From an uncultured Verrucomicrobiae bacterium (GTDB taxonomy: Bacteria > Verrucomicrobiota > Verrucomicrobiia > Chthoniobacterales > JAATET01), in NCBI GenBank assembly GCA_963719495.1, contig CAVRCI010000009.1:143409-207408 (forward strand): 64,000 bases of DNA, in the 5' to 3' direction. Every line of letters starts with the position of its first letter. Position 1 is the first letter of the stretch. The notes under the pieces were generated by a model. That model saw nothing but the letters and a program-made list of their open reading frames with translations, was not told the origin of the DNA and made no database searches. The translations under genes were made by a program, and so were the position numbers. Shown here in pieces: positions 7,929 through 58,382 of this stretch.

Positions 7929-8540
7929 CTAACGCGAGTAGAGCTCGACGACCAACTGCTCGTTTGCAATCGGATTGATCTCGTCGCGGGTCGGGATGCG
8001 CACGACCTCTCCCGAAAAGTTGTCTTTATCGACCATCACCCAATCGGGGACTGGCACGACGGCCGTCTGATCCATGCTGCGCTGCGCGAGGCGACGAGAT
8101 CCCTGGACGTCCTTGATGAGAACCTTGTCGCCCGGCTTCAAATTCGCCGATGAGACGTCAAGCTTGCGTCCGTTAATCTGAACGTGTCCGTGGGACACCA
8201 TCTGACGAGCCGCGGCGCGGGTCTTCGCGAAGCCCATGCGGAACACAACGTTGTCGACGCGGGTCTCCAGGAGCTGAAGCAGAGTTTCACCGGTCACACC
8301 ACGCTTGTTCAGCGCAATGTGGAAATAACGGCGAAACTGCTTCTCGAGCACACCGTATTGGAAACGAAGTTTCTGCTTCTCCGCCAACGCCAAAGCGTAG
8401 TCGGACACCTTCCGGCGCGACCCTTTCGGTCCGTGCATGCCGGGGCGGTAGTTCTTGCGTTCAAAAGCCTTCGCCGAACCGCCCAACATGACGTTGAAGC
8501 GGCGACTGACTTTGGTTTTGGGTCCTGTGTAACGAGCCAT
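7929..8540 (-). CDS. rpsD: 30S ribosomal protein S4
   Basis: MARYTGPK, LAEKQKLRFQYG, LETRVDNVVFRMG, EQLVVELYSR. Confidence 0.98.
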   Translation of the reverse strand: MARYTGPKTKVSRRFNVMLGGSAKAFERKNYRPGMHGPKGSRRKVSDYALALAEKQKLRFQYGVLEKQFRRYFHIALNKRGVTGETLLQLLETRVDNVVFRMGFAKTRAAARQMVSHGHVQINGRKLDVSSANLKPGDKVLIKDVQGSRRLAQRSMDQTAVVPVPDWVMVDKDNFSGEVVRIPTRDEINPIANEQLVVELYSR

Positions 8541-40686: not shown

Positions 40687-42291
40687 GAGGGGTCAGGCGG
40701 CATGAAAGGCTGATGAATAGAGCGTTGCTGGGAAGTGGGGCCCGGAGAGCCTGATAAAATGAATGGTGTAGGTTGGGGTGATGAAAACCCAACCAAAAAG
40801 CCTACCGACGGAATCGAGCTTCATTGGCATCGATTATCACAAGCGATACAGCGTCTATTGCGTGGTTGATGGCCACGGCGAGGTGCTCGGCCAAGGGCGC
40901 ATCGAGCACGCGATCAGCGGAGATTTTGGGCGGCTCGTCGAGCGGTGGCCGGGGTGCCGGATCGTCTTCGAAGCGAGCATGAACTGGCACTGGCTCTACG
41001 AGATTCTCGAGCAGGTGATGCCCGCCGAGAACATCGTGTTGGCCAACCCGTTTAAGACGCGGATCATCGCCGAGGCCCAAATCAAGACCGATAAGATCGA
41101 CGCCCGAGCGTTGGCCAATCTGTTGCGGGCCAATTTGATTTCGAGCGTCCACATCCCCAGTCGCGAGACCCGCGACATCAAGAACGTGCTGCGCCAGCGC
41201 TGTTTCTTCGTGCGCCAACGCACGATGCTGCGCAACCGCATCCACCGGTTACTTGGTGGGCAGCACGAACTTAAACTTCCTGTCTGCAGCGACCTCTTCG
41301 GCAAGAAGGGACTGAGTTTTCTGGAGAAGCTCGAGTTGCCCGAACCAGCAGGCATGCTCCTGACCCAGCAACTCGCCCTCCACAACGAGTTGGTCGCTCG
41401 CATCCGCCAAGACGAGGCAGCGCTCAAAGATCTCATGAGCCAAAGCCCCGAGCTCACCCACGTCTGCAGTCTCCCCGGGATGGGACCCATCCTCGCCGCG
41501 GTTGTCGTCGCCGAGATCGACGACATCTCGCGCTTTGCCTCCGCGCAGAAGCTCTGCGGCTACGCGGGACTCTGCCCGGCGACGAGCAGCAGCGGCGGTA
41601 AGACCTACCACGGACGCCTGCTGCCCCAGTGCAACAAGTGGCTGCGTTGGGCCTTCGTCGAGGCCGCCTGGGTAGCCGTTGGCTGCTCGCCCTACTTCGG
41701 CGACTACTACAAAAACAAACGCGCTCACGGCAAGAAAGCCAACACCGCCATTCTGGCCACCGCCCGCCGGATGGCCCGAATCACCTGGAGCCTCTTGACC
41801 CAGGGGCGTTCCTACACGAACTTTCCTGAATCCCAAAAGCTCCGAAGCCAGCGCCGTGACGCGGACGGGCAAACGCCTTCCCGATCCGGCCTGGCCAAGG
41901 AAAAAATTGAAGACATGAAAACCCCGAAAACACGCCAGGGACGCAAACGTCGATCTTCTCGAAAACAATTTCCCCAGCCGCTCCAATGAACGACTGGTTG
42001 GTCGCTAAGTCTTAGCACTTAGTCGGCGCACCTTGGGTCAGGATGGAGGGCTGGGGATCTGATCGCCACAATGGATGGGGGCCAGAAGTGCCCGCCCCGC
42101 AGAGAAGTGTGATTCCAGCATCGCTATCGTCCCAAGTTTACAGGCTCCTTCCCTTAATGTAAGAGCCCGCGCTTTTCCCTGCCCTGATGGTCACCCATTG
42201 GGCGCTTTCTTCTGCGTCCCATGCCCCACTCGGTCCAAGAACCCTCTAAATTAGACCCTTGACAGCCCTTCGACCCTTTTTTCAGAGAGGT
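40687..42291 (+). mobile_element. IS110-family element (IS1111-like, long 3' non-coding region)
   Basis: Joining the flanks at a shared GGT core recreates the adjacent sequence 42317-42356; TTGACA at 42259 near the right end. Confidence 0.8.
40781..41989 (+). CDS. IS110-family transposase/recombinase
   Basis: DEDD motifs FIGIDYHK, FEAS, KTDKIDA; C-terminal SLPGMG...RFASAQKL..YAGLCP...SSGGK. Confidence 0.95.
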   Translation: MKTQPKSLPTESSFIGIDYHKRYSVYCVVDGHGEVLGQGRIEHAISGDFGRLVERWPGCRIVFEASMNWHWLYEILEQVMPAENIVLANPFKTRIIAEAQIKTDKIDARALANLLRANLISSVHIPSRETRDIKNVLRQRCFFVRQRTMLRNRIHRLLGGQHELKLPVCSDLFGKKGLSFLEKLELPEPAGMLLTQQLALHNELVARIRQDEAALKDLMSQSPELTHVCSLPGMGPILAAVVVAEIDDISRFASAQKLCGYAGLCPATSSSGGKTYHGRLLPQCNKWLRWAFVEAAWVAVGCSPYFGDYYKNKRAHGKKANTAILATARRMARITWSLLTQGRSYTNFPESQKLRSQRRDADGQTPSRSGLAKEKIEDMKTPKTRQGRKRRSSRKQFPQPLQ

Positions 42292-49078: not shown

Positions 49079-50128
49079 TCACCCGTGCGCCCCGGCCAGC
49101 ACGTCGGTCGCCGCCAACCCCAGCTCGAAAGGCTCCAGCGCCATCGGCTCGTCGTGGTCCAGATACTCGCGGCACAGCGCAAAAAATTCCCCCTCCGCCT
49201 GCGCCCGCCGCACGTCGTGCAGAAACCGCCCCGTCGGCTCCACGCCCAGCGCCAGGTAATTCATCACCTTCTTGACCCGCTGGACCCGCTTCCGCTCGTC
49301 CACCCCGGGCGTCTCCGTCGATTCGTAAAGCCCCCGCACGTATTCCAACACGTCCCGCCCCGTCGGCAACCTCACCGCTTCCCCGACCCGCAGCGCCCGC
49401 AACTGCGAGAACATCCACGGATTCCGAATCGCCCCACGCCCGATCATCAGCCCCGCCGCCCCCGTCCGGCGTAAAATTTCCAGCCCACCCGCCGCCGACG
49501 CGACGTTTCCATTCGCCAGCACCGGACACCGCATCGCGCCCACCGCATCCGCGATCCGGTCGTAATGCACCTCCGACCGATACCGCTCGGCCACCGTCCG
49601 CCCGTGCACCGACAGCAGATCGATCTCGTGCCGCCCAAAGACCTCCAGCAACGCGTCGAATTCCCCCACCTCGGCGAACCCCAACCGAGTCTTCACCGTA
49701 AACCGCCCCCGGATCGCCGCCCGCAACTCCCCCAAAATCCGGTCGATTTGCGGTAAATCCCGCAGCAACCCACCGCCCGCGCACTTTCGATAAACTACCG
49801 GAGCCGGACAGCCCAGGTTGAGATCCACGCCCGCCACCGGGTGCCGATCCTCCAACTCCCGCGCCGTCCGCACCAGCGCCGCCACGTCATTCCCGATCAG
49901 CTGCGCCACCGCCGGCCGCCCCGTCGGATTCTCCACCACCGACCGCAAAATCTCGCGATCCAGACGGGACGTTTCCAAGACGCGAAAAAACTCCGTAAAA
50001 TAAACGTCCGCCGCCCCGTAGCCCGCCGTCAGGCGCCAAAAATCCCAATCCGTGACGTCCTGCATCGGCGCCAGCGCCAGCAACGGCCCGCCCGTCCCCC
50101 ATTCCTCCACCACGTTCACGACTGGCAA
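49079..50128 (-). CDS. tRNA-dihydrouridine synthase family protein
   Basis: LAPMQDVTD, DLNLGCP, TVKTRLG, VHGRT, ANGNV, MIGRGAIRNPW. Confidence 0.93.
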   Translation of the reverse strand: MPVVNVVEEWGTGGPLLALAPMQDVTDWDFWRLTAGYGAADVYFTEFFRVLETSRLDREILRSVVENPTGRPAVAQLIGNDVAALVRTARELEDRHPVAGVDLNLGCPAPVVYRKCAGGGLLRDLPQIDRILGELRAAIRGRFTVKTRLGFAEVGEFDALLEVFGRHEIDLLSVHGRTVAERYRSEVHYDRIADAVGAMRCPVLANGNVASAAGGLEILRRTGAAGLMIGRGAIRNPWMFSQLRALRVGEAVRLPTGRDVLEYVRGLYESTETPGVDERKRVQRVKKVMNYLALGVEPTGRFLHDVRRAQAEGEFFALCREYLDHDEPMALEPFELGLAATDVLAGAHG

Positions 50129-50173
50129 TTCACCACCGATCCACGCCCGGGCAAAGCTGATTTCGAATCTGAC

Positions 50174-50563
50174 CTAGCCCGACAACTCGGACGCCGCGTC
50201 GGCCAGCGCATCCGCCAAATCGTCCAGGTCGAACGGCTTCAACAAATGCCGCCGAAATCCCGATTCACTGCTCCGAGTCCGGTCCGACATCGTCCCAAAA
50301 CCACTCATTGCAATGGCGTAGCGCACGGCCCCGCTTTCAACCTCAACCAACAAATCCCAACCACTCCCGTCGGGCAGCCCGAGATCGGAAATCAAGACAT
50401 CGCAGCCCTCCGCCGCCAGTAATTCCCGCGCGTCGCGCACCGATCCGGCAGCGCGAACCCGATGCCCCAATTGCCGCAAAAACATCACCAAATACTTCCG
50501 AGTATCCGGATGATCCTCGACGACCACAATTTCAAGCGCGCCCTCGCCCTCGGATTCCCGCAT
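50174..50563 (-). CDS. Stand-alone response regulator receiver
   Basis: VVEDH, DVLISDLGLPDGSG, AMSG, LLKP. Confidence 0.9.
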   Translation of the reverse strand: MRESEGEGALEIVVVEDHPDTRKYLVMFLRQLGHRVRAAGSVRDARELLAAEGCDVLISDLGLPDGSGWDLLVEVESGAVRYAIAMSGFGTMSDRTRSSESGFRRHLLKPFDLDDLADALADAASELSG

Positions 50564-50730
50564 CCCCGCCGGGCGGTTCAACCGTGACATCGGCCCATCC
50601 GCTACCACGCCAACCTCCCCCCGCTTGAAACCAACACTCCATCCCACGTCATCCTCCTAATTTCGAATTCGCCACCCTTCCCGGCCCCATCGAAGCCCGG
50701 AATATTGCCCAGAATTTCTCGGCTTCACTC

Positions 50731-50746
50731 TGGCACGAATCCGGCT
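50731..50746 (+). promoter_or_regulatory. Candidate sigma54 (-24/-12) promoter
   Basis: TGGCACGAATCCGGCT has GG-N10-GC spacing with TGGCACG at -24; precedes a nitrogen-scavenging operon. Confidence 0.6.
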
Positions 50747-50750
50747 TTCC

Positions 50751-50778
50751 GTATTACTCGACCACGCCCGAGTATTAC
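50751..50778. promoter_or_regulatory. NikR-type operator
   Basis: GTATTA-N16-TATTAC (10-bp arms, 1 mismatch); same geometry as E. coli GTATGA-N16-TCATAC; 5 nt upstream of the NikR-like gene. Confidence 0.65.
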
Positions 50779-50783
50779 GCCCG

Positions 50784-51239
50784 ATGCCAAATCCACCGCC
50801 CACCACCGACCGCACGCCTGTCCAGCGGATCAGCGTCTCGCTCCCCGAGGCGCTCTTCAACGACCTTGAGCGGCTGGTCGAGGGTCAAGGATTCGACAAC
50901 CGATCCAAGGCCATCGCCCGCATGATCGCCCAGGCTTCCGCCGATTTTCAGGAGGACAAACGCGACCGCGTCATGGCCGGCACGATCACCCTCATCTACG
51001 ACGAGAACCAGGGCCACGTCCTCCAGAAACTCGCCGAGATCGAGCGCACCCACGTTGCCGAAGTCATCAGTTCCCTCCACGTCCAACTCCAGAGCAATCA
51101 CCGGCTCGAGGTCATCCTCATGCAGGGTCCGGCCAAAAAATTGAAGACCATCTCCGACCAACTCATCGGCACCCCCGGCGTCCGCACCGGCAAACTCACC
51201 CTCACCAGCATGATCCTCCCACCCCTCCACGCCGAATGA
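50784..51239 (+). CDS. NikR-like ribbon-helix-helix regulator
   Basis: QRISVSLP...[17 protein letters not shown]...SSLHVQL...LEVI. Confidence 0.88.
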
Positions 51240-51946
51240 CCGCTCGACTCACCGAAACCATGCGACCCGGCGCGATGTGGTCCGCCCGCATCCCGCGCCA
51301 CCGCCACGTCCGCCTCACCACCCGCGGCCCCGGCGCGAACGTCTCCGCCCTCCTCTACAACGCCGCCAACCCCCTCGATCGGCTCAACATTCCCGACACC
51401 CTCAAGGCCCTCCACACCGCCAAACTCACCCGCGGCCACGTCCTCATGTCCGACCTCGGCCACGCCCTCGCGTCCATCGTCGAAGACAGCGTCGGCTGGC
51501 ACGATCCGCTCGCCGGCCACAGCGACGCCACCTTCATCGCCGCCCGCTACGGCGGCGAGAGCTATCAGGAATTTCGCAACGACTTCCACCGCAACGCCCG
51601 CGACAACTTCCTGATCGAACTCGGCAAGCACGGCCGCGGCCTCCCCGACCTCGTCGCCAACGTCAATTTTTTCAGCAAGGTCCAGACCGACGACGCGGGC
51701 CAACTGGACTTCATCCCCGACCACGCGCCCGCCGGAGCCACCCTCGTCCTCCGCACCGACGTCGACCTCCTCCTCGTTCTGGCCAACTGCCCGCACCCCA
51801 TGGACGAATCCGAAACCTACCCGAGCCAACCCATCGAAATCGAAATCACAAAAACCGACCCGCCCACCGAAGACGACTTCTGCCGCACGTTCCGCCCCGA
51901 AAACGCCCGCGCCCTCGCCCTCACCGCCCGCCTCCTCGATCTGTGA
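51236..51946 (+). CDS. cgdA: Urea carboxylase-associated protein (DUF1989), probable carboxyguanidine deiminase subunit A
   Basis: [34 protein letters not shown]. Confidence 0.8.
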
Positions 51947-52623
51947 TCAATCCGAAATCCGAAATCCGAAATCCGAAATCCGAGATCCTCTCCGAGATCG
52001 TCCCCGCCGGAGAAGGCTGGCTCCACCCCATCGAAGCCGGCCAAACGCTCCGCATCGTCGACCTCGAAGGCAACCAGGCCGTCGACACACTTTTCTTCAA
52101 CGCCGACGACTTCACCGAGCGCTACAGCGCCCAGGACACCATCCGCGAGCAGCGCGCCATCTACCTCACGACCGGCACCGAGCTCGTCTCCAATCTCGGC
52201 AACGTCATGCTCACGATTACCGACGACACCTGCGGCCGCCACGACACGCTCGGCGGAGCCTGCGCCGCCGAGAGCAATCAAGTCCGCTACGCCCTCGACA
52301 AGGGCCACATGCACAACTGCCGCGACACCTTTCTCCTCCAGATCGCGCAATCCGGCCTCCCGCTCACCAAGCGCGACCTAGCCCACAACATCAACTTCTT
52401 CATGAACGTTCCCGTCACCCCCGAAGGCGGACTCAAATTCGAAGACGGCGTCTCCGAAGCCGGAAAATACGTCGAACTCCGAGCCGAAATGGACGTCCTC
52501 TGCCTCATCTCGAATTGCCCCCAACTCAACAACCCCTGCAACGCCCACAACCCCACCCCCATCCAGGTCACCATCTGGGAAAGAGAGGAAATTGCGGATT
52601 GCGGATTGCGGATTGCGGAATGA
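51943..52623 (+). CDS. cgdB: Urea carboxylase-associated protein (DUF1989), probable carboxyguanidine deiminase subunit B
   Basis: [42 protein letters not shown]; both termini encoded by heptamer arrays. Confidence 0.82.
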
Positions 52624-53007
52624 ATGCGGAAGAGCTCAAGGCGAGGACACGTGCCTTTGCCGTTCGCGTGCTCAAATTTGCCGACGCGGTGCCGTCGACC
52701 CCGAGCGGTCGCGCAGTGGTGAACCAGATCGTCCGAAGCGGCACCTCCGTCGCCGCAAATTATCGCGCCGCCTGCCGAGCCCGCTCGAGAAAAGAGTTCA
52801 TCTCCAAGCTCGGAATCGTCGAGGAAGAAGCCGACGAGACGGCATTCTGGATCGAGCTCGCCATCGAAGCCGGTCTCATTTCCGCAGCGAAAAGCCGCGA
52901 CCTCCTCCAGGAGGCCAGCGAACTCACCGCCATCATGGTCGCGTCGATCCGCTCGGCGCGCAGCGTCGAATGAACAATCCGCAATCCGCAATCCGCAATC
53001 CGCAATT
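52590..53007. mobile_element. Four-helix-bundle cassette with 29-bp perfect inverted heptamer arrays
   Basis: A(ATTGCGG)4 at 52590-52618 and (CCGCAAT)4T at 52979-53007; mobility is inferred. Confidence 0.6.
52620..52973 (+). CDS. Four helix bundle protein (23S rRNA-IVP-like family)
   Basis: [45 protein letters not shown]. Confidence 0.92.
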
Positions 53008-56000
53008 CACCAAGATCCTGATCGCCAACCGCGGCGAGATTGCCGTCCGGATCATCCGCACCTGCCAGCGCTTGGGAATCCAGACGGTCGCCGTCCACTC
53101 CGAGCCCGACGCCCACGCCCTCCACGTCCAACTCGCCGACGAAGCCGTCGCCATCGGCCCCGCCGCCGCCTCCGCCAGCTACCTCGACACCCAAAAGATC
53201 CTCTCCGCCGCCCGCGCCACCGGCACCCAGGCCATCCACCCCGGCTACGGCTTCCTCAGCGAAAACGCCGACTTCGCCGAAGCCTGCGCCGCCGCCGACA
53301 TCGCGTTCATCGGCCCGACCCCCGGCCAGCTCCGCAACTTCGGCCTCAAACACACCGCCCGCGAACTCGCCGCCGCCGCCGGCCTCCCCATGCTCCCCGG
53401 CAGCGGCCTCCTCACCACCATCGAGCAAGCCCACGCCGAAGCCGAACGCATCGGCTATCCGGTCATGCTCAAAAGCTCCGCCGGCGGCGGCGGCATCGGC
53501 CTCGCCCGCTGCGACACGCCCGCCGAACTCGACGAACGCTTCCCGTCCGTCGCCCGAGCCGGTCTGGCGAATTTCGGCAACGCCGCCTTCTTCGTCGAAA
53601 AATTCATCGCCACCGCGCGCCACATCGAAGTCCAGATCTTCGGCGACGGCGCGGGCACCGTCATCGCCCTCGGCGAGCGCGATTGCTCCGTCCAACGCCG
53701 CAACCAAAAGGTCATCGAAGAAACCCCCGCCCCCAACATCGCCGACGCCACCCGCTTCGCCCTCCACGCCGCCGCCGTCGCCCTCGGCGAGAGCGTCAAC
53801 TACGCCAGCGCCGGCACCGTCGAATTCGTTTATGACGCCACCACCGCCCAATTCTACTTCCTCGAAGTCAACACCCGCCTCCAGGTCGAGCACGGCATCA
53901 CGGAAGAGGTCACCGGCATCGACCTCGTCGAGTGGATGATCCGCCAAGCCGAAGGCCACTTCCGACTTTCCGACCTTGGACCTTCCGACCTTCCGACGCC
54001 GCAGGCTCACTCCCTCGAGCTCCGCCTCTACGCCGAAAACCCCCACAAAAACCACCAACCCTCCACCGGTCTCCTAACGAAGGTCCACTTCCCAACCGCC
54101 GAAGGCGGAACTCAGGCCCTCGACCCTCGACCCTCGACCCTCGACTCACCCCGCATCGACACCTGGATCGAAACCGGCACCGAAGTCACTCCCCACTACG
54201 ACCCCCTCCTCGCCAAGCTCATCGTCACCGCCCCGACCCGCGAAGAAGCCATCGACCGCGCCCTCGCCGCTCTCGCGGAGACCGAAATCCACGGCATCGA
54301 AACCAACCAGGCCTACCTCGCCACGATCCTCGCGTCCGAGCCGTTCCGAAGAGCCGAAATCACCACCCGCACCCTCGACACCTTCCCCTTCGAGCCGACC
54401 ACCATCGACGTCCTCGCCCCCGGCACCCAGACCAGCGTCCAGGACCTCCCCGGCCGGCTCGGCTACTGGTCCGTCGGCGTCCCCCCGTCCGGCCCGATGG
54501 ACCCCAAATCCTTCCGCCAAGCCAACGAAGCCCTCGGCAACTCACCAGAAGCCGCCGGACTTGAAATCACCCTCTCCGGCCCCACCCTTCGCTTCAACAC
54601 CCCCACCGCCATTTGCCTCACCGGAGCCCACCACCCCGCAACCCTCGACGGCGAAAAGGTCATCTACGGAACCCCCACCCCCGTCGCCGCCAACCAAACC
54701 CTAAAGATCACCACCGCCGAAGGCCCCGGAGCCCGAGCCTACTTGGCCATCGCCGGAGGCTTAGACGTCCCAGACTACCTCGGCAGCAAAAGCACCTTCG
54801 CCCTAGGCGGCTTCGGAGGCCACGCCGGAAGAAACCTCCAAACCGGCGACGTCCTAAGACTCACCACCACCAATCACCAGTCACTAGTCACCAATCACAG
54901 GTCACAGACACCCCCCGCCCCCGAACTCACTCACACCTGGAGCCTGCAAACCCACTACGGCCCCCACGGAGCCCCCGATTTCTTCACCGACGACGACATC
55001 GCCACGATCTTCAGCGCCACCTACGAGGTCCACTACAACAGCAACCGCACCGGCGTCCGCCTCACCGGACCCAAGCCGAAGTGGGCGCGCCGCGACGGCG
55101 GCGAAGCCGGCCTCCATCCGTCGAACATCCACGACAACGCCTACGCCATCGGCGCGCTCGATTTCACCGGCGACCTCCCCATCCTCCTCGGACCCGACGG
55201 CCCCAGCCTCGGCGGCTTCGTCTGCCCCTGCGTCGTCGTCCCGGAGGAACGCTGGAAACTCGGCCAACTCAAAGCCGGCGACAAAGTCCGCTTCATCAGC
55301 GCCAAAGGCGCAACGCATTCCACCATTCACCATTCACCCATCACCAGTCACGTCGCCGCGACCCCAACCCGCCCCGCCCTCACCCTGCGGCAAAGCGGCG
55401 GCGATTACCTCCTCGCCGAATACGGCCCGCTCGTTCTCGACGTCGACCTCCGCGTCCGCGTCCACCTCCTCCACGCCGCCCTCGAGACCGCCGCCCTCCC
55501 CGGCCTCATCGACCTCACCCCCGGCATCCGTTCGCTCCAGATCCACTTCGACCCCGCCATCCTCCCCGAGTCCGAACTCGTCGACACCCTCCTCCGCCTC
55601 GACGCCGACCTCCCCGCCACCGACGACCTCGAAATCCCCTCCCGCATCGTCCACCTCCCCATCTCCTGGGACGACCCCGCCGTCCAGCTCACCATCGAAA
55701 AATACCAGCAAACCGTCCGCGCCGACGCCCCGTGGTGCCCCAGCAACCTCGAATTCATCCGCCGCATCAACGGCCTCGATTCCATCGACGACGTCCGCCG
55801 CATCATCTTCGACGCCAGCTATCTCGTCATGGGCCTCGGCGACGTCTACCTCGGCGCCCCCGTCGCCACCCCACTCGACCCCCGCCACCGCCTCGTCACC
55901 ACCAAATACAATCCCGCCCGCACCTGGACCCCGCCGAATGTGGTGGGGATCGGCGGCGCTTACCTCTGCATCTACGGCATGGAAGGCCCCGGCGGCTACC

Positions 56001-56602
56001 AGCTCTTCGGGCGCACGCTGCAGGTCTGGAATTCCCACCGCACCACGAAAAATTTCGAACCCGGCAAACCCTGGCTCCTCCGCCACTTCGACCAACTCCG
56101 CTTCTTCTCCGTTAGCGAAACCGAACTCACCACCGCCCGCGAAAATTTCCTCCACGGCACCTACGAAATCCGCATCGAACCCACCACCTTCAAGCTCGCG
56201 GACTACCACAAATTCCTCGCCGACATCGCGCCCGAGACCGCCGTCTGGAAGGCCCGCCAGCAAGCCGCCTTCGAGGCCGAGCGCGACCGCTGGGCCGCCG
56301 CCGGTTACGCCCCCGACGACGATTCCAGCACCTCCGAGCCGCCACCCACCGCCGACGACCTCCCACCCGGCGGCCAGCACGTCGACGCCACCGTCGCGGG
56401 CAATCTCTGGAAATTCCTCGTCGCCCCCGGCGAGCAAGTCGCCGCCGATCAACCCGTTGCGATCATCGAGTCGATGAAAACAGAAATCGAAATCTGCAGC
56501 CCCGACGCCGGAATGGTCCGGTCCCTGCTTATCACGGAGGGCCGCCCGGTCACACCCGGCCAGCATCTTGTCGTCCTCACGCCGCCGCACCCGGCAACCT
56601 GA
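52970..56602 (+). CDS. uca: Urea/guanidine carboxylase (biotin-dependent)
   Basis: ILIANRGEIA, HPGYGFLSEN, FLEVNTRLQVEH, HPSNIHDNAY, KYNPART, ESMK biotin site. Confidence 0.95.
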   Translation: MNNPQSAIRNPQFTKILIANRGEIAVRIIRTCQRLGIQTVAVHSEPDAHALHVQLADEAVAIGPAAASASYLDTQKILSAARATGTQAIHPGYGFLSENADFAEACAAADIAFIGPTPGQLRNFGLKHTARELAAAAGLPMLPGSGLLTTIEQAHAEAERIGYPVMLKSSAGGGGIGLARCDTPAELDERFPSVARAGLANFGNAAFFVEKFIATARHIEVQIFGDGAGTVIALGERDCSVQRRNQKVIEETPAPNIADATRFALHAAAVALGESVNYASAGTVEFVYDATTAQFYFLEVNTRLQVEHGITEEVTGIDLVEWMIRQAEGHFRLSDLGPSDLPTPQAHSLELRLYAENPHKNHQPSTGLLTKVHFPTAEGGTQALDPRPSTLDSPRIDTWIETGTEVTPHYDPLLAKLIVTAPTREEAIDRALAALAETEIHGIETNQAYLATILASEPFRRAEITTRTLDTFPFEPTTIDVLAPGTQTSVQDLPGRLGYWSVGVPPSGPMDPKSFRQANEALGNSPEAAGLEITLSGPTLRFNTPTAICLTGAHHPATLDGEKVIYGTPTPVAANQTLKITTAEGPGARAYLAIAGGLDVPDYLGSKSTFALGGFGGHAGRNLQTGDVLRLTTTNHQSLVTNHRSQTPPAPELTHTWSLQTHYGPHGAPDFFTDDDIATIFSATYEVHYNSNRTGVRLTGPKPKWARRDGGEAGLHPSNIHDNAYAIGALDFTGDLPILLGPDGPSLGGFVCPCVVVPEERWKLGQLKAGDKVRFISAKGATHSTIHHSPITSHVAATPTRPALTLRQSGGDYLLAEYGPLVLDVDLRVRVHLLHAALETAALPGLIDLTPGIRSLQIHFDPAILPESELVDTLLRLDADLPATDDLEIPSRIVHLPISWDDPAVQLTIEKYQQTVRADAPWCPSNLEFIRRINGLDSIDDVRRIIFDASYLVMGLGDVYLGAPVATPLDPRHRLVTTKYNPARTWTPPNVVGIGGAYLCIYGMEGPGGYQLFGRTLQVWNSHRTTKNFEPGKPWLLRHFDQLRFFSVSETELTTARENFLHGTYEIRIEPTTFKLADYHKFLADIAPETAVWKARQQAAFEAERDRWAAAGYAPDDDSSTSEPPPTADDLPPGGQHVDATVAGNLWKFLVAPGEQVAADQPVAIIESMKTEIEICSPDAGMVRSLLITEGRPVTPGQHLVVLTPPHPAT

Positions 56603-56609
56603 CCGTTCC

Positions 56610-58382
56610 ATGCCACTCAAGAAACTCCCCCTCGACCTCTCCAATCTGCGCTCCGGCTACCGCACCGGCGACTTCACCCCCGCCGAAGTCGTCCGCGAGA
56701 TCCACCGCCGGATCGCCGCCCGCGGCGAAGACCACGTCTGGATCCACCTCGTCCCCGAGGAAGACGCCGTCGCGGTCGCCACCCGCCTCGCCGACCAGCT
56801 CGACCTCCCGCTGGCCGGCATCCCCTTCGCCGTCAAAGACAACATCGACGTCGCCGGCCTCCCCACCACCGCCGGTTGCCCCGCCTACGCCTACACCCCC
56901 GACCGCACCGCCACCGTCGTCCAACGCCTCCTCGACGCCGGCGCCATCCTGATCGGAAAAACCAATCTCGACCAATTCGCCACCGGCCTCGTCGGCACCC
57001 GCAGCCCCCACGGCGCGCCCGCCAGCGTCTTCGACCCTGATTTCATCTCCGGCGGCTCCAGCGCCGGCTCCGCCGTCGCCGTCGCCGCCGACCTCGTCGC
57101 CTTCTCGCTCGGCACCGACACCGCCGGCTCCGGTCGCGTCCCCGCCGCCTTCAACAACCTCATCGGCCTCAAACCCAGCCGCGGCCTCCTCAGCACCACC
57201 GGCGTCGTCCCCGCCTGCCGCTCCCTCGACTGCGTGAGCATCTTCACCAACTCCGTCTCCGACGCCGAGATCGTCCTCCAGGTCGCCGCCGCTCCCGACG
57301 AATCCGATCCCTACTCCCGCGTCCACGTCCGCCGCCCGCTCTTCGCCCAATCGTTCCGCTTCGGCGTCCCCCCCGCCACCGAACTCGATTTCCACGGCGA
57401 CGACGACTGCGCCCGCCTCTACGCCCAAGCCCTCACCCGGCTCGAACGCCTCGGCGGCACGCGCCTCGAGATCGATTACGCCCCCTTCCGCGAAGCCGCC
57501 GCCCTCCTCTACGAGGGCCCGTGGGTCGCCGAACGCTACGCCGCCGTCGGCGAATTCATCGCCAACCACCGCGACGACTGCGACCCCACCGTCGCGGACA
57601 TCATTCTCAAAGGCGCGACCCTCACCGCCGCCGAAGCCTTCGCGTCCTTCCACCGCCTCGAAGCCCTCAAGCGACGCGCCAGCGAAGTCCTCGACGCCAT
57701 CGATTTCCTCGCCCTTCCCACGACCCCGACCACGTTCAAGATCGCCGAAGTCCAAGCCGACCCCATCGCGCTCAACTCCGTCCTCGGCACCTACACGAAC
57801 TTCGTCAACCTCCTCGACCTCGCCGCGCTCGCCGTCCCGATGGGGTTCCGCGCCGACGGACTCCCCCTCGGCATCAGCTTCATCGGCCCCGCCTGCACCG
57901 ACCCGCAACTCTGCGCCCTCGGCCGCGCCTTCACTGGGGCGTCGGCCCGCAAAACCGAGCTCAACCTCCGCCCCCGCCTCCTCTCCGGAGCCGACCGCGT
58001 GAGCCTCGCCGTCGTCGGCGCCCACCTCTCCGGTTTCCCCCTCAACCACCAGCTCATTGAACGCGGCGCCCACCTCCTCGAGGCCATCGAGACCAGCCCC
58101 GACTACGCCCTCTTCTCCCTCCCCGACTCCGACCCGCCGAAACCCGGTCTCGTCCGCGTCGCCGACAACCGAGGCGTCGCCGTCGAAGTCGAAGTCTGGT
58201 CCATCCCCGTCGAAGAATTCGGCAGCTTCGTCGCCGCCGTCCCCAGCCCCCTGGCCATCGGCACCATCCGCCTAGCCGACGGCCGCCACGTCAAAGGCTT
58301 CCTCTGCGAAGAAGAGTCCACCCACCGAGCCGAACCCATCTCCATCTACGGAGGCTGGCGCCACTACCTCGAAACCCGCTAA
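56610..58382 (+). CDS. atzF: Allophanate hydrolase
   Basis: FAVKDNID, GKTNLDQFATGLVG, GGSSAGS, GTDTAGSGRVPA, C-terminal VVGAHLSG. Confidence 0.93.
   Translation: MPLKKLPLDLSNLRSGYRTGDFTPAEVVREIHRRIAARGEDHVWIHLVPEEDAVAVATRLADQLDLPLAGIPFAVKDNIDVAGLPTTAGCPAYAYTPDRTATVVQRLLDAGAILIGKTNLDQFATGLVGTRSPHGAPASVFDPDFISGGSSAGSAVAVAADLVAFSLGTDTAGSGRVPAAFNNLIGLKPSRGLLSTTGVVPACRSLDCVSIFTNSVSDAEIVLQVAAAPDESDPYSRVHVRRPLFAQSFRFGVPPATELDFHGDDDCARLYAQALTRLERLGGTRLEIDYAPFREAAALLYEGPWVAERYAAVGEFIANHRDDCDPTVADIILKGATLTAAEAFASFHRLEALKRRASEVLDAIDFLALPTTPTTFKIAEVQADPIALNSVLGTYTNFVNLLDLAALAVPMGFRADGLPLGISFIGPACTDPQLCALGRAFTGASARKTELNLRPRLLSGADRVSLAVVGAHLSGFPLNHQLIERGAHLLEAIETSPDYALFSLPDSDPPKPGLVRVADNRGVAVEVEVWSIPVEEFGSFVAAVPSPLAIGTIRLADGRHVKGFLCEEESTHRAEPISIYGGWRHYLETR

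Follow-up and report, generated by a model that had tools for sequence, protein, structure and literature searches.

To our knowledge, RNA switches are the only elements yet known to control gene expression in response to guanidine, and the guanidine-I riboswitch among them is an ON switch. A 2025 review counts guanidine-binding transcription factors among the things yet to be discovered (PMC12186494). In Synechocystis, the gdmH/gimABC genes are controlled by NtcA together with a guanidine-I riboswitch (PMC12704784, in extract). According to a 2024 review, NikR proteins are sensors of nickel alone (PMC11672702). The urea carboxylase operon CCNA_01902-01906 of Caulobacter crescentus is headed by CCNA_01902, annotated as a 'nickel-responsive regulator NikR', and nickel control of this operon was, in the extract of that study, assumed and not tested (PMC8552747).

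The window analysed here (the whole stretch of 64,000 nucleotides, from an uncultured Verrucomicrobiae bacterium) contains an operon with the same gene order as the Caulobacter operon, the two being compared by annotation and order alone (PMC8552747). The operon shares with guanidine-I and guanidine-II riboswitch systems the enzymes (cgdA, cgdB, gca, atzF), the Asp-type carboxylase and an associated ABC importer, and differs from them in that control is predicted to be exerted by a protein at transcription initiation. As in the Synechocystis system, global nitrogen and substrate-specific inputs appear to be combined and enzymes and importer have separate promoters; that system differs in its Ni-dependent hydrolase, its other global regulator and its use of RNA as the specific layer (PMC12704784, in extract). 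The features of the locus are:

50731..50745, plus strand: sigma54-type -24/-12 site, TGGCACG-N4-CGGC, 9/11 consensus positions
50750..50779, no strand assigned: predicted operator, GTATTAC-N14-GTATTAC within an inverted repeat with 11-bp arms and one mismatch
50784..51239, plus strand: NikR-fold regulator, ATG to TGA, 151 aa
51236..51946, plus strand: CgdA (UAAP1), carboxyguanidine deiminase subunit (TIGR03425, 282.5 bits, cut-off 205.95)
51943..52623, plus strand: CgdB (UAAP2), carboxyguanidine deiminase subunit (TIGR03424, 332.7 bits, cut-off 284.7), GTG start
52620..52973, plus strand: four-helix-bundle (23S rRNA IVP family) passenger gene, by profile match, with flanking inverted repeats
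52970..56602, plus strand: urea/guanidine carboxylase of the guanidine-preferring, Asp type (TIGR02712, 1752 bits)
56610..58382, plus strand: allophanate hydrolase (TIGR02713, 786 bits, cut-off 511), ATG start

From the regulator through the allophanate hydrolase, starts and stops overlap or lie close together, the cgdA start overlapping the regulator stop, and cgdA, cgdB, the carboxylase and the allophanate hydrolase all score above their NCBIfam cut-offs. Alignment to 5i8i and 3va7 places an Asp of the carboxylase opposite K. lactis N1330, a residue number that agrees with the count in the alignment. Of the top 80 among 584 related loci, 62 could be aligned and 18 gave no alignment; the same Asp is present in 60 of the 62, the other 2 being unreadable. 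Asp versus Asn marks guanidine carboxylases, according to a review extract that gives no residue number (PMC12186494). The substrate class of the operon is guanidine, judged from the Asp-type carboxylase together with the guanidine riboswitches inside related clusters and the residues of the importer binding protein described below. The four-helix-bundle gene recurs in only 2 of the 80 top-ranking loci out of 584 relatives. It lies between 33-nt inverted arms of a 7-mer repeat that are 97% complementary (52590-53007), the repeats extending into the ends of cgdB and the carboxylase gene, and a related 7-mer array without a four-helix-bundle gene occurs early in cgdB (51949-51988). Elsewhere in the window, a 403-aa ORF (40778-41989) resembles an IS110-family transposase by eye.

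The regulator matches NikR_C (PF08753; E 1e-22, 80 bits in a profile search) and reaches 110.4 bits against PRK04460, above the cut-off of 105. It falls below the cut-offs of the NikR models TIGR02793, PRK02967, PRK01002 and PRK00630, and its ribbon-helix-helix N-terminus matches RHH_1 (PF01402; E 9e-4) with 19.6 bits, just below the cut-off of 20.5. The NikR structures compared were those of Pyrococcus horikoshii (2bj1/2bj3), Helicobacter pylori (2ca9/6mrj) and Escherichia coli (1q5v/2hza), and the full-length alignment with 2bj1 gives an E value of 8e-26. For the AlphaFold2 monomer (pLDDT 85), the best structural matches are NikR proteins and the next are ACT regulatory domains; the C-terminal domain superposes on 2y3y with Z 15.5 and an rmsd of 0.9 Å over 83 residues, and the regulatory domain on ACT regulatory domains with Z 10-11.6. 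R15, S17, S19, R40 and S41 are conserved. Like NikR, the protein has a ribbon-helix-helix and an ACT-like domain, an R-x-S-x-S strand, a two-half-site box and predicted control of an ABC importer, and by these comparisons it is NikR-like in fold and in its predicted DNA recognition.

The His/His/His/Cys nickel ligands of 2bj1 align with R88, H99, Q101 and R107 of the regulator; three of the four ligands are lost, and the His3Cys square-planar nickel site is absent. A sequence-only reading of this DNA had proposed exactly this, a NikR fold with R/H/Q/R at the ligand positions and only H87 kept, and the alignment confirms it residue by residue; the E. coli ligands are numbered 76/87/89/95. In databases such proteins are entered as 'CopG family' or as 'nickel-responsive' regulators. 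The Asticcacaulis gene in the position equivalent to CCNA_01902 reads LHFS at the ligand positions. Across the 80 best-scoring loci out of 584 relatives, the old ligand positions show 15 patterns, and several cgdA-linked members have none of the four ligands left (RQQV in 9/80 loci). The full ligand set is found in 0/80 of these loci (best 80 of 584) and in 0/84 of a second set, which adds 4 loci from plasmids and 80 from metagenomes, many of them short.

Searches of the genome, which is 98.6% complete, turned up neither a urease nor an NiFe hydrogenase nor an arginase-family enzyme; urease scores above the cut-off in 5/19 relatives carrying both regulator and cgdA, and no nickel transporter is found among the annotated recurrent neighbours. 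Both predicted targets of the regulator are nitrogen-scavenging operons, not nickel transport or nickel-enzyme genes. Because the regulator fails both the nickel-site and the nickel-target tests, it is not to be filed as a nickel sensor, and nickel sensing by it in this genome appears unlikely. A role as a nickel-sparing backup for urease was considered and is unsupported, none of the three kinds of nickel-related gene searched for having been found here. An alternative is that the metal site has been rebuilt, for example from H99, E109 and H149, and that the protein is still a metal sensor, calling up a nickel-free route when nickel enzymes fail or tracking the metal of the pathway enzymes. 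H99 is present in 70/80 and H149 in 73/80 of the near loci (best 80 of 584), 32/84 proteins of the second set read HHHT, with three His kept and only Cys lost, two cgdA-linked Verrucomicrobiota proteins read HHHY, and the score above the PRK04460 cut-off fits as well. Against it stand the RQQV members, the missing nickel-enzyme genes, the low frequency of urease and the lack of a neighbouring nickel transporter, and we regard a rebuilt metal site as very unlikely, although in the second branch, with its HHHT proteins, a metal role is conceivable.

The ligand-less branch is closely linked to cgdA. Among 61 related genomes, a NikR-like gene occurs in 23, ligand-less in 19 and of the HHHC type in 4; in 19/19 genomes with cgdA the ligand-less gene lies directly 5' of it, and the genomes of 4/4 HHHC NikRs are without cgdA above the cut-off, these counts spanning kin and hence not being independent. 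In a sample of 151 genomes of the phylum, cgdA is present in 17, of which 13 have the ligand-less regulator, while in the other four, all of one genus, NikR-like matches are absent and the 1.5 kb around cgdA contains no riboswitch. These four loci (L158, L159, L163 and L164) contain cgdA and two cgdB-like genes without the regulator. Among 30 phylum loci examined, with 23 other NikR-like matches left out, all 16 HHHC genes lie in genomes without cgdA. Further afield, cgdA is present in 72/80 GTDB loci (best 80 of 584), and in the second set 79/84 loci are cluster-linked, 33/84 have both operator and promoter, and 0/84 are HHHC. Members of the branch are found with the same cluster in Acinetobacter, Asticcacaulis, Novosphingobium and Sphingobium and with importer-ligase clusters in Parvibaculum, and a sample of 301 alphaproteobacterial genomes gave 3 matches, 2 of them from the ligand-less branch. 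The earlier suggestion of a NikR-family protein repurposed in connection with guanidine is thus upheld as regards the pathway, through the 19/19 linkage among the 61 relatives and the Asp-type carboxylase.

In a 71-row tree (unrooted, with the ligand columns kept and three lone ligand losses left out), HHHC and ligand-less proteins fall on opposite sides of one branch with support 98/73, and a quick 168-row tree, also unrooted, places three separate ligand losses within canonical NikR (P0214, P0232 and P0261). E93 is present in 79/80 (best 80 of 584 loci) and 84/84 second-set loci and Q114 in 80/80 (again best 80 of 584) and 84/84, whereas HHHC proteins have Glu at the E93 position in 20% and Gln at the Q114 position in 5%. 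E93, S97, Q114 and a PPxH tail are conserved in the ligand-less branch only. The regulator thus differs from NikR in lacking His3Cys, in its extra conserved E93, Q114 and PPxH tail, in its separate side of the (unrooted) tree, in targets concerned with guanidine breakdown and import, and in operators that adjoin sigma54-type promoters. These branch-specific residues also bear on the possibility that the protein has no small-molecule ligand and is locked in a DNA-binding state, for instance by R88 filling the old metal site, acting as a constant damper or under the control of a partner such as PII. Free drift at the four old ligand positions and R88 in 73/80 near-branch loci (best 80 of 584) would fit such a lock; R88, however, is not conserved in the proteobacterial-type branch, and the branch-only E93, S97, Q114 and PPxH tail suggest a function kept at the regulatory domain, which makes a ligand-free protein decidedly unlikely.

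A GTATTA-N16-TATTAC operator had been proposed upstream of the gene, and the box is indeed present: it spans 28 bp (50751-50778) and ends 5 bases 5' of the regulator ATG. The predicted operator starts 5 bases past the -12 GC and covers the predicted transcription start, which we place at ~50757 from sigma54 geometry. It is the sole zero-mismatch GTAWTAC-N14-GTAWTAC site in the 4.54-Mb genome, which has 15 sites with at most two mismatches, and with a matrix trained on 62 sites, all from other genomes, it ranks first at 24.2 bits, binding itself being predicted; C15:159381 ranks second at 23.8 bits. The third match, C3:74902 (20.3 bits), was set aside as it lies inside a 977-aa ORF and has no sigma54 site, and C3:152798 was set aside for its position within an ORF. 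By the criterion of at least 12/14 matches within 260 nt upstream, an operator is present in 62/80 loci (best 80 of 584) as against 1/1492 coding windows from the 80 loci, a null that is lenient because coding DNA is higher in G+C. By these counts the box is not a chance occurrence. Boxes of a similar type precede HHHC NikR genes, true NikRs using like operators, but as the regulator is the sole NikR_C gene of this genome, the box can be assigned to it without difficulty. A cluster on plasmid pSA1 of Novosphingobium resinovorum (L191) contains two NikR-like genes, at 8001 and 11549, and four candidate operators.

In the window promoter, the GG-N10-GC spacing is kept (GG 50732-50733, GC 50744-50745); since the -12 box reads CGGC, not TTGC, and TGGCACG-N6-GC strings number 60 genome-wide, the site is weak taken alone. 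In the best 80 of 584 loci, a sigma54-type site of at least 7/11 adjoins 62/90 operators versus 8.7% of random positions, and one of at least 8/11 adjoins 53/90 versus 2.9%; 28/90 operators of these loci have no adjoining site on the tested strand. The operator lies past the -12 box in 30/62 cases, as here, and just before the -24 box in 32/62 (best 80 of 584 loci). In the genome itself, the window box and the C15 box are the only operators above 10 bits with a sigma54 match of at least 8, and four weaker operator/sigma54 pairs score 7. The sigma54-type promoter of the earlier reading therefore draws its support from the spacing and from the enrichment beside operators in relatives, its non-consensus -12 box leaving it weak by itself. 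A stand-alone receiver-domain gene (PF00072; 50174-50647, minus strand) is divergent from the regulator promoter and is not prominent among the recurrent neighbour clusters of relatives.

The genome encodes an RpoN scoring above the cut-off and three enhancer-binding activators, none of which exceeds the NtrC cut-off. Its own amtB-glnK and glnA have 9/11 sigma54-like sites without the operator, and no enhancer word is common to four of its own sigma54-type promoters. NtrC-like sites occur at 4/58 near-branch promoters and at 23/31 promoters of the second, proteobacterial-type set, in the latter mostly 78-125 nt upstream and against a chance level of 9%. Gating by nitrogen starvation, also proposed from the sequence, thus holds up in the proteobacterial-type branch, where nitrogen control is well supported by these predicted sites; in the present genome, where no shared enhancer was found, it can only be inferred from the sigma54-like sites at amtB-glnK and glnA. 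No operator was found at the three amt genes or glnA, with best upstream scores of at most 3.1 bits, so the predicted regulon appears local, and a role as a global nitrogen regulator is not supported.

The second-ranked box follows a better sigma54-type site, TGGCACG-N4-GTGC (10/11), lies 8 bases past the -12 GC and 11 nt ahead of the ATG of an ABC binding protein gene, and heads the following operon:

G000:C15:148793-159363, minus strand: second predicted target operon (L106), identified by the operator matrix and sigma54-type site

This operon encodes an ABC binding protein, permease and ATPase, a creatininase/MftE-family enzyme, a Rieske oxygenase and two type III glutamate-ammonia ligases, one of them nearest to the glutamate-methylamine ligase 9qur (E 2e-114), and further a protein of 235 aa that ends in a LuxR-type domain, an FGE-like protein and a TIM-barrel-like protein, the last label being a reading only, with no NCBIfam match. 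Its main genes run in the order binding protein, permease, ATPase, creatininase, type III ligase, Rieske oxygenase, ligase. From this gene content, the compound used may be a guanidino or urea derivative with N-methyl groups. In relatives, C15-type genes are fused into the regulator operon (ABC ATPase 42, type III ligase 26 and creatininase 25 of the best 80 of 584 loci), and a two-operon regulon is predicted here, made up of the guanidine carboxylase operon and the distant C15 importer operon. The importer binding protein keeps W39, W42, D113, W183 and D212, with a spacing (spacing only) close to that of the docking-named residues of GimA, which is a measured guanidine binder with contact residues from docking (PMC12704784, in extract).

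No guanidine riboswitch had been recognised upstream of the regulator, and Rfam searches agree. No Rfam family scores above the gathering threshold in an all-family scan of the window, in 49900-53100 no guanidine family is found even with E values allowed up to 10, the whole genome is free of guanidine-I and guanidine-II matches (positive controls being detected), and the all-family scan of the second operon shows no guanidine riboswitch. The guanidine-III search was run without a responding positive control, and for guanidine-IV the coverage is that of the all-family scans alone, run on the window and on the second operon. The predicted leader, at ~27 nt versus riboswitch models of 48-107 positions, has no room for a riboswitch. 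Guanidine-I is above the cut-off in 0/61 and 0/150 sampled genomes, in which the top candidates only were scored. Counts from a hand-made guanidine-I pattern were discarded, as it detected just one of its two positive controls and matched coding DNA.

Beyond this genome, guanidine-I or -II was found by Rfam scan in 10/44 regulator-bearing loci, picked by length or name from about 170, and in 0 of 16 Verrucomicrobiota loci. The presence of guanidine riboswitches within these 10/44 clusters argues that the cluster concerns guanidine. Among 42 loci with cgd genes, guanidine-I precedes 7/8 stand-alone cgdA genes versus 0/34 placed behind regulator or importer genes, an operator being detected in 26/34 of the latter. 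Five of the seven guanidine-I cgdA promoters are without an operator, and two, in Acinetobacter, have both. These positions argue that the operator tends to replace a guanidine-ON element, and at cgdA genes without guanidine-I, control appears mostly to have passed to the regulator. Strict replacement of riboswitch by protein was rejected as a rule, both being present in 10/44 loci. The same loci weaken the argument that the protein must be the sensor when the riboswitch is absent; the two inputs may be stackable, and the protein may read a different molecule. In the Acinetobacter loci L181 (4842-4999, 11820 and 17174) and L183 (2157-2331, 11830 and 19466), three operators each adjoin a sigma54-type site, and the order at cgdA is operator, promoter, guanidine-I riboswitch.

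We give an even chance to the regulator being a local repressor that is released by guanidine or a close N-substituted guanidine. Within this reading, guanidine itself as the releasing ligand is possible but doubtful, and an N-substituted precursor or carboxyguanidine is an unlikely one. The apo-regulator would be a tetramer as in NikR, contacting each half-site with one ribbon-helix-helix dimer, and would sit on the 28-bp boxes over the predicted start sites of the two sigma54-type promoters and block sigma54 polymerase; an activator would supply the nitrogen-starvation signal, so that expression would need both low nitrogen and substrate. The effector pocket would lie where the ACT-like domains of two subunits meet; candidate guanidinium contacts are E93, specific to the branch, and also Q114, S97 and the PPxH tail. 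E93 probably stands at the start of strand 2, where in ACT domains the partner subunit contacts the effector. Repression is favoured because of the position of the box, the small local regulon of import and breakdown genes and the exchange with an ON riboswitch, and a methylated precursor is a real option because of the glutamate-methylamine-ligase-like and creatininase-family enzymes.

Several observations count against release by a guanidine. An operator and guanidine-I on one cgdA promoter, as in the two Acinetobacter loci, would amount to double sensing; operators at the importer operon alone, in five loci (L218, L229, L241, L243 and L273), fit uptake feedback equally well; and known guanidinium pockets consist of aromatics and acids, whereas the sole conserved aromatic in the branch is Y72, common to true NikR as well. 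One shared ligand is not assured, because the old ligand positions vary in 15 patterns, and polarity may differ between promoters, because the operator is upstream of -24 in 32/62. The coexistence of regulator and riboswitch in 10/44 loci and the 4 of 17 phylum genomes in which cgdA has neither of them nearby count against the reading too.

The importer-only operators bear equally on a co-repressor with the ancestral NikR polarity, in which DNA binding would be turned on, and both uptake and breakdown shut, by a product or by a signal of nitrogen sufficiency; candidates are excess guanidine, allophanate, urea, glutamine and a gamma-glutamyl amide. Canonical NikR binds DNA in response to its ligand and represses import (PMC11672702, in extract), the operator is found at the importer promoter in both branches, and coexistence with riboswitches would be natural if the protein reads another signal. 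However, the amt and glnA promoters are without the operator; nitrogen control in the proteobacterial-type branch is already supplied by NtrC-like sites, closing the breakdown genes on guanidine itself would be counter-productive, and guanidine-I is missing from all 34 cgdA genes behind regulator or importer genes. A co-repressor is, in our estimate, unlikely.

In its fullest form, the derepression reading holds that a widespread NikR branch turned its nickel site into an organic-cation pocket and so provides a protein receptor, the first of its kind, for guanidine or its N-methylated forms, governing a sigma54 regulon and interchangeable with guanidine-I at cgdA, to which we allow slightly less than an even chance. 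If true, in Verrucomicrobiota and in many Proteobacteria the regulon would span import, demethylation/hydrolysis, the capture of amines and carboxylation. A search of open PMC and bioRxiv papers gave no description of the regulator, nor in the extracts of PMC12186494, PMC12623156, PMC2667541, PMC12508155, PMC11672702, PMC10781810, PMC8552747, PMC5343134 and PMC12704784. Set against the two reviews, the branch offers a concrete candidate: its operator is defined, one genome contains two of its predicted target promoters, and it has hosts that can be cultured. It would correct 'nickel-responsive regulator' annotations, which already lie behind the nickel interpretation of the Caulobacter operon. 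It also points to an uncharacterised upstream pathway of a creatininase-family enzyme, a Rieske oxygenase and glutamate-methylamine-ligase-like enzymes, which likely feeds guanidine breakdown. In the Acinetobacter locus L183, a 2OG-Fe(II) oxygenase gene, a hypothetical gene and an SMR exporter gene lie behind the importer, and by description, unaligned, they recall the methylguanidine demethylation genes in the extract of PMC12508155.
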